Assembly (NCBI GenBank): GCA_946628065.1
Contig: CAMOWC010000001.1
Location: 43,249 to 83,248, forward strand
Direction: 5' to 3'
Source: an uncultured Clostridiaceae bacterium
GTDB lineage: Bacteria; Bacillota; Clostridia; TANB77; CAG-508
DNA length: 40,000 bases
The translations under genes were made by a program, and so were the position numbers. Below, one piece after another: positions 2,970-3,787 of this stretch (within the stretch, counting starts at the first letter, position 1; the number at the start of each line of letters is the position of its first letter). The notes under the pieces were generated by a model. The model saw only the letters and a list, made by a program, of their open reading frames with translations. It had not been told where the DNA came from and did not search any database.

Positions 2970-3002
2970 AAAAAAAAAGTGAGAGCTTTTTATGGCTCTC
3001 AC
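2970..3002 (-). terminator. intrinsic terminator downstream of the 3014..3346 ORF
   Basis: Stem gtgagagc / gctctcac (2979-2986 and 2995-3002). A 9-nt A-run at 2970-2978 gives a T-run on the minus strand. Confidence 0.7.
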
Positions 3003-3013
3003 TTTGGGGCGAA

Positions 3014-3346
3014 TCAATTCATCACATGCCTGCTAAACGTTCCTTGTGCAAGCTCGCAAAGATAATCAATGAGGTCATATGTGCTATCAAATCCGTGAAT
3101 GACAACATCATATTTAAACTTCTTATCTTTGCCAAACACAGAATGGACTTCGATGACATCGGATCCCCGATTGTATGCAAGGAAAATGCGCTCATGGCAT
3201 ACATTTAAGGAATACCAAATATCATATACAAGACATTGTAGTTCCTCTCTCAGCTCTTGGGAGTTCTTGATAAAGGTGCTAATCAAAGCTTTTCCGTCTC
3301 CAGTTGGGGTAATACGAATGTAGCATTGGTCTTGAATCTTTTCCAT
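3014..3346 (-). CDS. hypothetical 110-aa protein, second gene of GC-rich cassette 2
   Basis: Complete ORF. AGGAGGGG RBS lies between the stop of the upstream ORF (3361) and the ATG (3346-3344). Composition is GC-rich. No family recognised. Confidence 0.6.
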   Translation of the reverse strand: MEKIQDQCYIRITPTGDGKALISTFIKNSQELREELQCLVYDIWYSLNVCHERIFLAYNRGSDVIEVHSVFGKDKKFKYDVVIHGFDSTYDLIDYLCELAQGTFSRHVMN

Positions 3347-3360
3347 TGCATTCCCCTCCT

Positions 3361-3684
3361 TTAGTCATACTTTTCCATTGCCCTATCAAGGAGAATTCCC
3401 CAGTAAGGATTGCTAGGCCTCTCACCTTTTGTAAACGGCACTTCAAATCCTTTCCTTTGGAATCCAAGGTTCTCAAGCAAACCATGCTTTTCGTCGGTCC
3501 ATTTGGTGACATACAGCTTTCCATCTTCATCGATAAATGCCAGAACGCCATCCTTAGTATTGTATACCTTGGAAAGGCCCTTTGGCGGAACATACCGATT
3601 GATGTGGATCACTTTTCTGTCGAGCAACAACATTCCTTCTTCACAGTAGAATGACCAGCGGACGAGTTCAGCCAGCGTTGTCAT
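3361..3684 (-). CDS. hypothetical 107-aa protein, first gene of GC-rich cassette 2
   Basis: I place the start at the ATG at 3684-3682 (MTTLAELVRW...), preceded by AAGGAGGGAGAATC. The longer track ORF reaching 3741 has no RBS. No family recognised. Confidence 0.6.
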   Translation of the reverse strand: MTTLAELVRWSFYCEEGMLLLDRKVIHINRYVPPKGLSKVYNTKDGVLAFIDEDGKLYVTKWTDEKHGLLENLGFQRKGFEVPFTKGERPSNPYWGILLDRAMEKYD

Positions 3685-3758
3685 GATTCTCCCTCCTTGT
3701 CGAATTCTCTTTATAGACAACCGACTTGTGCAAAAGGCCATTGCCTAAATGCAAAAAA

Positions 3759-3787
3759 ATTATATCATAGATTTACATAAATTACAA
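3759..3787 (-). promoter_or_regulatory. sigma-A-like promoter candidate for cassette 2 (TTGTAA-17 nt-TGaTATAAT)
   Basis: On the minus strand, -35 TTGTAA is at 3787-3782, followed by a 17-nt spacer and an extended -10 TGATATAAT ending at 3759. It lies about 70 nt upstream of the 3684 start. Confidence 0.5.

Follow-up and report, generated by a model that had tools for sequence, protein, structure and literature searches.

The closest described counterparts of the locus reported here are type II toxin–antitoxin (TA) systems such as higBA, hicAB and mqsRA, the pairs formed by bacteriocins or polymorphic toxins with their immunity proteins, and the tRNA-linked islands and phage 'morons'. The locus lies in a 40,000-nt stretch (the window) from an uncultured Clostridiaceae bacterium (assembly GCA_946628065.1, contig CAMOWC010000001.1, forward-strand positions 43,249 to 83,248) and consists of two small adjacent genes, here called A and B, between a tRNA-Leu(GAG) gene and pta. 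It had been regarded in an original prediction, made from the letters of the window alone, as a foreign cassette in a tRNA integration neighborhood that resembles a TA or effector–immunity module. The coupling of the two genes, the self-containment of the unit, its odd codon composition and the unrecognizable proteins were described correctly, whereas neither the mobile cassette nor the canonical TA or effector–immunity module was borne out. Like type II TA genes, A and B are co-directional genes for proteins of about 100 amino acids (aa), separated by a short spacer in an autonomous unit with an acidic downstream product, and they evolve fast and have an atypical composition. Unlike TA genes, they encode no recognizable toxin fold or antitoxin DNA-binding domain, A is absent in four of seven lineages while B is conserved, and both occupy one fixed locus, whereas TA systems are patchy, mobile and multi-copy. 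The order of the genes, the small acidic second protein, the rapid divergence and genotypes of the immunity-only type recall bacteriocin or polymorphic-toxin pairs, but A has no delivery domain, export or secretion genes are not adjacent, arrays of immunity paralogues are lacking, and the locus is syntenic and single-copy. With tRNA-linked islands and morons, the operon shares the adjoining tRNA gene, the autonomous arrangement of promoter, genes and terminator, and a composition unlike that of the surroundings; it differs in its position on the 5' side of the tRNA gene, in lacking an integrase and a 3'-end repeat, in being fixed in all relatives, and in lying outside any prophage. Our analysis shows that the operon is neither a recently integrated mobile cassette nor an obligate two-component addiction module. 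It is probably a clade-fixed, vertically inherited and fast-evolving orphan operon with B as the core gene and A as a facultative gene.

The comparison covers seven lineages, which are the window and the loci L001, L006, L007, L008, L009 and L010, several of them on contigs of 0.7–4 kb. Every homologue of A or B that could be placed occupies the slot between tRNA-Leu(GAG) and pta, and the order is shared: tRNA-Leu(GAG), divergent promoter, short hairpin, A where present, B, terminator, pta promoter, pta and ackA. B is missing from none of the lineages. The window, L001 and L009 contain A and B, whereas B is found without A in L006 (whose contig begins just upstream of the promoter), L007 (on a contig without pta), L008 and L010. 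The only homologues of A are those of L001 and L009, with 69% and 39% identity, respectively, and the B-only loci have 108–156 nt between the tRNA gene (or the contig end) and B, which leaves no room for A. A can thus be dispensed with, and the two genes are no obligate pair, as three lineages have both and the other four only B directly behind the shared promoter. The original prediction had named, as a finding that would speak against a module, an interval that is identical in all relatives and native in composition; we found the interval occupied in all relatives and the composition non-native, and thus only one half of that picture.

Protein identities among the lineages are 77–94% for Pta, 29–60% for B and 36–69% for A, and the window and L009 are 39% identical in A and 45% in B. 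The 150-nt divergent promoter region that is shared with the tRNA gene has 88% nucleotide identity to that of L001. The grouping of the window with L001 is supported in the B tree (86% bootstrap) as well as in the pta trees (91–99%), and this agreement is consistent with vertical descent. The B-only lineage L006 joins these two weakly (42–44%), and L009 with its A and B lies outside. Since A and B are similarly diverged between the window and L009, a loss of A is likelier than a repeated gain, and A would then have been ancestral to the window/L009 group and lost at least once, on trees whose deeper nodes are poorly supported.

A and B belong to very rare protein families. A word-indexed search in 5.8 billion proteins gave, beyond the proteins of the window itself, a single homologue for A and two for B, and a further search of this type with the A profile did not add any. 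An exhaustive hidden Markov model search with the B profile in 1.84 billion representatives resulted in five real matches, the window's own and four new ones; a 1,548-aa protein (P0010) that also came up is a repetitive fiber-like protein aligned via seven short repeats, and was treated as spurious. A scan of 185,579 species-representative genomes and of the Joint Genome Institute metagenomes detected only a short contig identical in sequence to the window and the metagenome-assembled genome of L001, a Clostridia bacterium (RGIG6776) of the sheep rumen. A and B thus show what defines orphan families, i.e., no homologue beyond a narrow clade in an exhaustive search and a coding gene under purifying selection, and by these sequence comparisons they are taxonomically restricted orphan families of a narrow clade of AT-rich rumen and gut Clostridia. 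They represent two new protein families, each with only a handful of public sequences, and the invariable retention of B beside pta–ackA behind a conserved strong promoter indicates that B is probably useful to this rumen and gut clade.

The coding status is evident from the substitution pattern. Between the window and L001, the differences per site at the first, second and third codon positions are 0.24/0.13/0.63 in A and 0.29/0.19/0.56 in B, and the ratio of nonsynonymous to synonymous differences (pN/pS) is 0.19 for A and 0.31 for B. The nonsynonymous divergence (dN) is 0.20 for A and 0.29 for B, compared with 0.03–0.085 for five flanking genes, and judged from these rates both proteins evolve 5–7 times faster than their neighbors while purifying selection persists. 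By the same kind of comparison, purifying selection on B continues in the lineages without A, as pairs of B-only lineages have pN/pS values of 0.37–0.62, with pS saturated.

The operon is on the minus strand of the window, and its open reading frames (ORFs), spacer, promoter and terminator, as well as the neighboring tRNA gene and pta, were all found where the original prediction had placed them. Gene A (3361..3684, 107 aa) and gene B (3014..3346, 110 aa) are indeed a tightly coupled pair with a single promoter and a single terminator, and the 14-nt spacer between them (3347..3360, coding strand AGGAGGGGAATGCA) holds the Shine–Dalgarno sequence AGGAGGGG of gene B. Gene A has the Shine–Dalgarno sequence AAGGAGGGAG (3689..3698, minus strand), 5 nt upstream of the start of the 107-aa frame, and this start and ribosome-binding site are kept in L001 (AAGGAGGGG) and L009 (AAAGGAGG). 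A longer ORF of 126 aa is without such support. The promoter at 3759..3787 (minus strand) is of the sigma-A type (TTGTAA-17-TGaTATAAT, 10 of 12 matches, with an extended −10 element) and is arranged back-to-back with that of tRNA-Leu. L001 has exactly the same sequence and L006 a single different nucleotide, and in L007–L010 the promoter can still be recognized. With a transcription start assumed at about 7 nt past the −10 box, the 5' untranslated region is about 68 nt long, close to the predicted 70 nt. A stem-loop follows at the 5' end of the transcript (3729..3753, minus strand, −8.8 kcal/mol), with the core AGGC-AATG-GCCT at 3735–3746. A hairpin is found at this position in six of the seven lineages with differing stems (AGGC/GCCT, TTAAGGC/GCCTTAA, TTAGGT/ACCTAA, TAAGGC/GCCTTA and TGGG/CCCA), and when the sequence of each lineage is folded separately, these hairpins are weak one by one, with z-scores from +0.4 (L009) to −2.5. 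The element may be an mRNA-stabilizing hairpin or an operator palindrome. The operon ends with an intrinsic terminator (2966..3005, minus strand; 11-bp stem at 3005–2976, loop and T-run), and the six other loci also end B with a terminator, the stem sequence of which differs. The boundaries are formed by tRNA-Leu(GAG) (3835..3920, plus strand), a divergent neighbor outside the unit that has the same relative position in L001, L007, L008, L009 and L010, and by the pta promoter (2931..2959, minus strand; TTGAAA-17-TATAAT, 11 of 12 matches), which is highly conserved in all loci. As pta (1902–2900, minus strand) has its own promoter, pta and ackA (693–1883, minus strand) form a separate transcription unit. 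A and B therefore form an independent transcription unit with a sigma-A-type promoter, a 5' hairpin, strong ribosome-binding sites, coupled ORFs and a terminator. The expression signals are strong and conserved, with ribosome-binding sites of the AGGAGG type and the extended −10 promoter.

That neither protein is recognizable was confirmed: Pfam, NCBIfam, PADLOC, PHROGs and PDB contain no family that matches A or B. The searches of A and B against Pfam, NCBIfam, PADLOC and PHROGs gave only sub-threshold noise, as did Pfam, NCBIfam and PADLOC with all seven B members one by one, and the PDB profile searches A1–A4 gave a best E-value of 0.029 with unrelated proteins. AlphaFold2 models from shallow alignments reached predicted local distance difference test (pLDDT) scores of 42.6 and 42.4 and were given no weight. 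The Foldseek comparison that had been proposed with the original prediction was carried out with these models of pLDDT ~42, and returned no match under E = 0.1. A superficial likeness in topology between B and the Prp protease (7kld, E = 0.38) was discarded, since the candidate Cys is not conserved. The B family comprises soluble proteins of ~105–116 aa with an isoelectric point (pI) of 4.4–6.0 (5.5 in the window) and ten invariant residues (R11, I12, E34, L36, N48, F55, K75, H84, G85 and L92). B is predicted to be an alpha/beta protein, for which a low-confidence model suggests the order two strands, helix, two or three strands, helix. The A family is neutral (~105 aa, pI 6.7–7.8, 6.7 in the window), predicted to be beta-rich, and has a conserved VPF-x-x-GERP motif. 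On this basis, B may be a small acidic cytoplasmic protein with constitutive and fairly strong expression that would bind another macromolecule as a modulator or neutralizer, and A may be one dispensable partner or client of B that is co-translated from the same mRNA. A sits as a facultative gene between the 5' hairpin and the ribosome-binding site of B. Our tentative proposal is that B has its own function as a binder or modulator that is abundant in the cytoplasm, and that A is produced alongside B as a partner the cell can do without.

Several points weigh against the view that the operon is an orphan unit of vertical descent whose core is B. The deeper nodes of the trees have bootstrap values of 31–59%, which makes the number and direction of gains and losses of A uncertain, and only seven lineages were at hand, several of them on short contigs. 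A and B have no family or fold match, both structural models have a pLDDT of about 42, and the expression strength was judged solely from sequence signals. Furthermore, fast evolution, odd composition and an acidic downstream protein would also fit a conflict system, and the G+C content at third codon positions (GC3) of B ranges from 0.26 to 0.57 among the lineages, unlike what a uniform selective optimum would give.

The conflict system that has to be considered is a toxin-first TA or toxin–immunity pair, in which A would be the toxin and the acidic B its neutralizer, in the order known from higBA, hicAB and nuclease-bacteriocin/immunity pairs, and in which the B-only lineages would have an orphan antitoxin or immunity gene. 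The arrangement would suit such a pair, as one mRNA carries two genes for ~12-kDa proteins with 14 nt between them, the product of B is acidic and that of A neutral, both evolve 5–7 times faster than the neighbors, and the promoter is closely followed by a palindromic hairpin that is possibly an operator. The losses hit A alone and never B, which is the only order that a toxin/neutralizer pair tolerates. We also found two small, adjacent and co-directional genes in one transcription unit, as is characteristic for type II TA systems; the obligate co-occurrence that also characterizes these systems is not given, as B occurs without A in L006, L007, L008 and L010. A recognizable toxin superfamily (RelE/ParE, MazF/CcdB, VapC, HicA, Doc, HipA and others) was not detected when A and B were compared with Pfam, NCBIfam, PHROGs, PADLOC and PDB profiles, nor did A, B or their homologues match any antitoxin DNA-binding domain (ribbon-helix-helix, helix-turn-helix, AbrB, Phd/YefM) of Pfam, and even the individual scanning of seven B members did not reveal a toxin, antitoxin or DNA-binding domain. 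Regarding delivery, the 107-aa protein A has no Pfam domain and no link to type VI or type VII secretion, contact-dependent inhibition (CDI), LXG or Rhs systems, and inspection of its N-terminus did not reveal a hydrophobic signal-like stretch. The lack of a signal peptide and of a secretion-associated domain in A argues against such a pair, and the operon neighbors are tRNA-Leu, an RluD-like gene, pta and ackA, with no adjoining secretion system. The gene order and the B-only loci fit the pattern of immunity genes, but they are equally explained by a function of B itself. Orphan antitoxins usually decay, whereas in four lineages the lone B has a conserved strong promoter and is subject to purifying selection, and the pair is at one fixed locus without mobility or variation in copy number. 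The resemblance to TA or effector–immunity modules that had been pointed out originally is thus not upheld, as four of the seven lineages have B alone, no toxin, antitoxin, DNA-binding or secretion-associated domain was detected, and the operon is single-copy and immobile, and we regard a toxin-first pair as unlikely. For annotation, we would like to emphasize that a coupled pair of small genes with deviating G+C content beside a tRNA gene need not be a TA island.

The tRNA neighborhood does not support a mobile element either. Integrases that target tRNA genes recombine within the 3' end, and islands insert there, whereas the operon is upstream of the 5' (promoter) end of tRNA-Leu. As had been noted before, an att-like repeat of the tRNA 3' end is lacking (no second copy of the 26 nt exists in the window with up to 3 mismatches), other repeats around the locus are chance-level matches only, and no integrase is visible, the unit holding only A and B. 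The closest member of the integrase family that was noticed is in L001, on the far side of spo0A at a distance of about 8 kb, and A and B had no match among the INPHARED phages, IMG/VR, or the PLSDB plasmids. Presence/absence polymorphism was not seen, as B is at the site in all seven lineages. The fixed slot, the conserved promoter, the position on the 5' side and the absence of att repeat and integrase thus do not support tRNA-linked integration, and the idea of a foreign cassette in an integration neighborhood is not upheld for a slot that is filled in all seven lineages, on the 5' side of the tRNA gene and without a link to mobile elements. On the other side of the tRNA gene, its 3' end and the RluD-like gene are adjacent in the window, whereas in L001 they are separated by about 3 kb of AT-rich DNA (L001 6721–9739) that codes for a CotH-domain protein and contains two ORFs of 199 and 393 aa. 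As this stretch is on the 3' side, the variable side of tRNA-Leu is opposite to the A–B operon.

What had prompted the word 'foreign' is the composition, and here the atypical codon composition was confirmed, whereas a foreign origin was not, as no donor is visible and all homologues are in the same slot. The G+C content is 0.448 for A and 0.393 for B in a window of 0.311, and GC3 is 0.50 for A and 0.405 for B, compared with 0.177±0.024 (range 0.128–0.219) for 22 large genes of the window, i.e., about +13 and +9.5 standard deviations. The excess is wholly at third codon positions, while GC1 and GC2 are native-like. GC3 of A in L001 is 0.65, and GC3 of B exceeds that of pta wherever both are on the contig (0.26–0.57 versus 0.09–0.19), with 0.30 for B in L007; relative to the background, GC3 is 2–3.5 times higher in the window and L001 and 1.5–2 times higher in the other lineages. 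A set of eight rare codons accounts for 0.9% of 8,903 background codons, for 8–13% of the A and B codons of the window and L001, and for 1–6% in the B-only lineages. In gut microbiomes, orphan genes as a rule have the GC and GC3 of their host, and phage-derived ones are richer in AT (PMC11293555). A and B resemble gut-bacterial orphan small genes in being short, fast-evolving, poor in host-optimal codons, restricted to a narrow clade and under purifying selection, but their GC3 is far above that of the genome and has lasted across diverged lineages. The third base is kept at only 0.39 (A) and 0.48 (B) of the codons for identical amino acids between the window and L001, compared with 0.57–0.69 in the flanks, and by this comparison synonymous change is nearly saturated in A and B. 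The puzzle is, therefore, that a non-native composition persists near synonymous saturation without a visible donor, whereas orphans usually match the GC of their host. Either a gene-specific force holds up GC3, or the cassette has been repeatedly replaced from unseen donors via its conserved flanks.

In the first case, the GC-ending and rare-codon-rich genes would be held above the genomic equilibrium, and candidate forces would be a throttling or conditioning of translation, mRNA stability, selection for non-optimal codons, or biased conversion. The spread of GC3 among the lineages speaks against one fixed optimum, and a low-power comparison of the window with L001 did not show G/C-ending codons to be kept at particular sites, as would be expected from RNA structure or pause sites (SS counts for A: 16 observed, 16.5 expected; for B: 14 observed, 13 expected). 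The codon of the invariant Arg11 of B (window 3314–3316) is CGG in five of the seven lineages and CGT in two, and never the usual AGA of the genome. The sequence ATT CGG ATA is identical in L006–L009 and reads ATG CGG ATA in L010, while other synonymous sites vary freely, which suggests that this codon is under a nucleotide-level or rare-codon constraint.

The second case is a form of horizontal import, which could have been one ancient acquisition from a GC-richer source that is still ameliorating, or a repeated replacement by recombination in the tRNA-Leu/pta flanks. The 2–3.5-fold GC3 in the window and L001, the sharp compositional borders at the transcript ends, the range of GC3 from 0.26 to 0.65 across the lineages, and a synonymous divergence above that of the flanks (third base the same at 0.39–0.48 versus 0.57–0.69) would all be expected from import, and the flanks are 87–96% identical and thus sufficient for recombination. 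Against this, no donor is visible and all placeable homologues are in one slot of one AT-rich clade, GC1, GC2 and amino-acid composition are native-like, and the B tree matches the pta tree at the one supported node, window plus L001. The A/B family predates the split of the window and L001, and in a rough bound for neutral decay, in which reset sites return to the genomic 0.18, A would need an ancestral GC3 near or above 1 if it was resident before this split. A recent island at the tRNA gene further conflicts with a unit that is fixed in all lineages, lies 5' of this gene and has no att repeat. We consider import in either form to be quite improbable.

The composition of A and B is not unique in the window, as at least three further stand-alone small-gene units are rich in GC3, and the eight rare codons make up 6–9% of these. 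The 85-aa unit (370–627, minus strand, GC3 0.55) is flanked by ackA and a second ackA paralogue and has the promoter TTGTAA-17-TGgTATAAT at 703–675, a 5' hairpin and a terminator at 363–331; its counterpart in L001 (13448–13705) has 66% amino acid identity and a coding substitution pattern. The 82-aa unit (11657–11905, minus strand, GC3 0.41) has the promoter TTTACA-17-TAAAAT, a hairpin soon after the −10 element and a terminator found by scan. The 95-aa unit (33068–33355, plus strand, GC 0.52, GC3 0.62) has the promoter TTGTAA-17-TATAAT, a hairpin after the −10 element is not clear, and a terminator was not found by scan, while a hairpin with a T-run is seen by eye. All four units, including A–B, have a sigma-A-like promoter and a strong ribosome-binding site, while the same TTGTAA −35 element occurs in three of the four, as does, in a partly different set of three, a hairpin about 7 nt past the −10 element together with a terminator detected by scan. 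The 85-, 82- and 95-aa proteins had no family match. The 11-mer TCTGACCGACC spans the stop codons of the 82-aa and 95-aa units (two matches in the window, 0.03 expected), and the C-termini of these proteins are related (YL[TS]xHG..R[FI]); apart from this C-terminal/3' motif, no paralogy was detected among the small GC-rich ORFs. There is a small chance that A–B and these sister units form a dispersed class of small GC3-rich and rare-codon-rich units whose composition is actively maintained, for example, by tRNA gating, or that they are chromosomally fixed conflict genes of a kind not recognized before. If the composition is actively maintained, the locus and its sister units would offer a compact system in which to examine how selection acts on rare codons or mRNA GC content in AT-rich Firmicutes.

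The specific version of this idea is a rare-codon-gated expression, in which A, B and other GC3-rich units would need scarce tRNAs such as tRNA-Leu(GAG) or the decoder of CGG. tRNA-Leu(GAG) reads CUC, and a rare-codon gating system is known from Streptomyces with bldA and TTA codons, of which a gating of A and B would be the mirror image. The enrichment of the eight codons from 0.9% in the background to 8–13% in A and B of the window and L001 would agree with gating, as would the 3–5 CTC codons among the 102–107 codons of A compared with less than 0.2% in the background, the Arg11 CGG that is kept in five of seven lineages and is never AGR, and the back-to-back position of the operon with tRNA-Leu(GAG) wherever the contig reaches upstream of the promoter (L006 is cut there). 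However, the enrichment covers G/C-ending codons generally and no single codon, the G/C-ending positions are not conserved between the window and L001, tRNA-Leu(GAG) is also required for the common CUU codon, and the B-only lineages are poor in the rare codons (1–6%), so that such a gating is very improbable.

The idea that a structured non-coding RNA accounts for the GC-rich segment and that the ORFs are spurious, for which it could be said that RNA genes often form GC-rich islands in AT-rich genomes and that several frames are open on both strands, is effectively refuted by the third-position substitution bias in the called frames with pN/pS values of 0.19–0.31, the amino acid identity of 69% in the sense and 36% in the antisense frame, the strong Shine–Dalgarno sites, and the lack of any Rfam match for the operon in a scan of the region that detected nothing but the tRNA. 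A 102-aa ORF exactly opposite to A was likewise dismissed as a gene on the basis of these identities; it is open because A almost wholly avoids TTA, CTA and TCA, the one TCA being the end of the antisense ORF.

Some observations concern the wider neighborhood. The RluD-like pseudouridine synthase gene beside tRNA-Leu consists of two overlapping ORFs (window 3971–4871, plus strand, shift site 4503–4516) and is split at the same place in three independent assemblies (window, L008 587–1490 and L001 5633–6494, the latter two on the minus strand). The split site reads GAA-AAG-AAG-C-GGN in all three, both halves match PF00849, and a +1 shift at a very rare CGG codon is required to reach the conserved G-x-I-x-A-P-I motif. 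From its conservation, the split looks like a programmed +1 frameshift or a split gene rather than a sequencing error. The class A bacterial RNase P RNA (window 4867–5254, minus strand, 278.6 bits) explains the GC-rich patch at about 4876–5075. The second acetate kinase paralogue downstream of ackA is represented in the window by positions 1–256 (minus strand), which correspond to 1628–1883 of ackA, with 74% nucleotide identity between 107–256 and 1734–1883, and it is full-length in L001 (13815–14999). Finally, the region 33373–34084 (plus strand) contains a cotJA-like gene (PF11007, E = 1.6e-8) and, after it, an ORF of 90 aa; together with spo0A and CotH of L001, the cotJA-like gene indicates a spore-forming organism.

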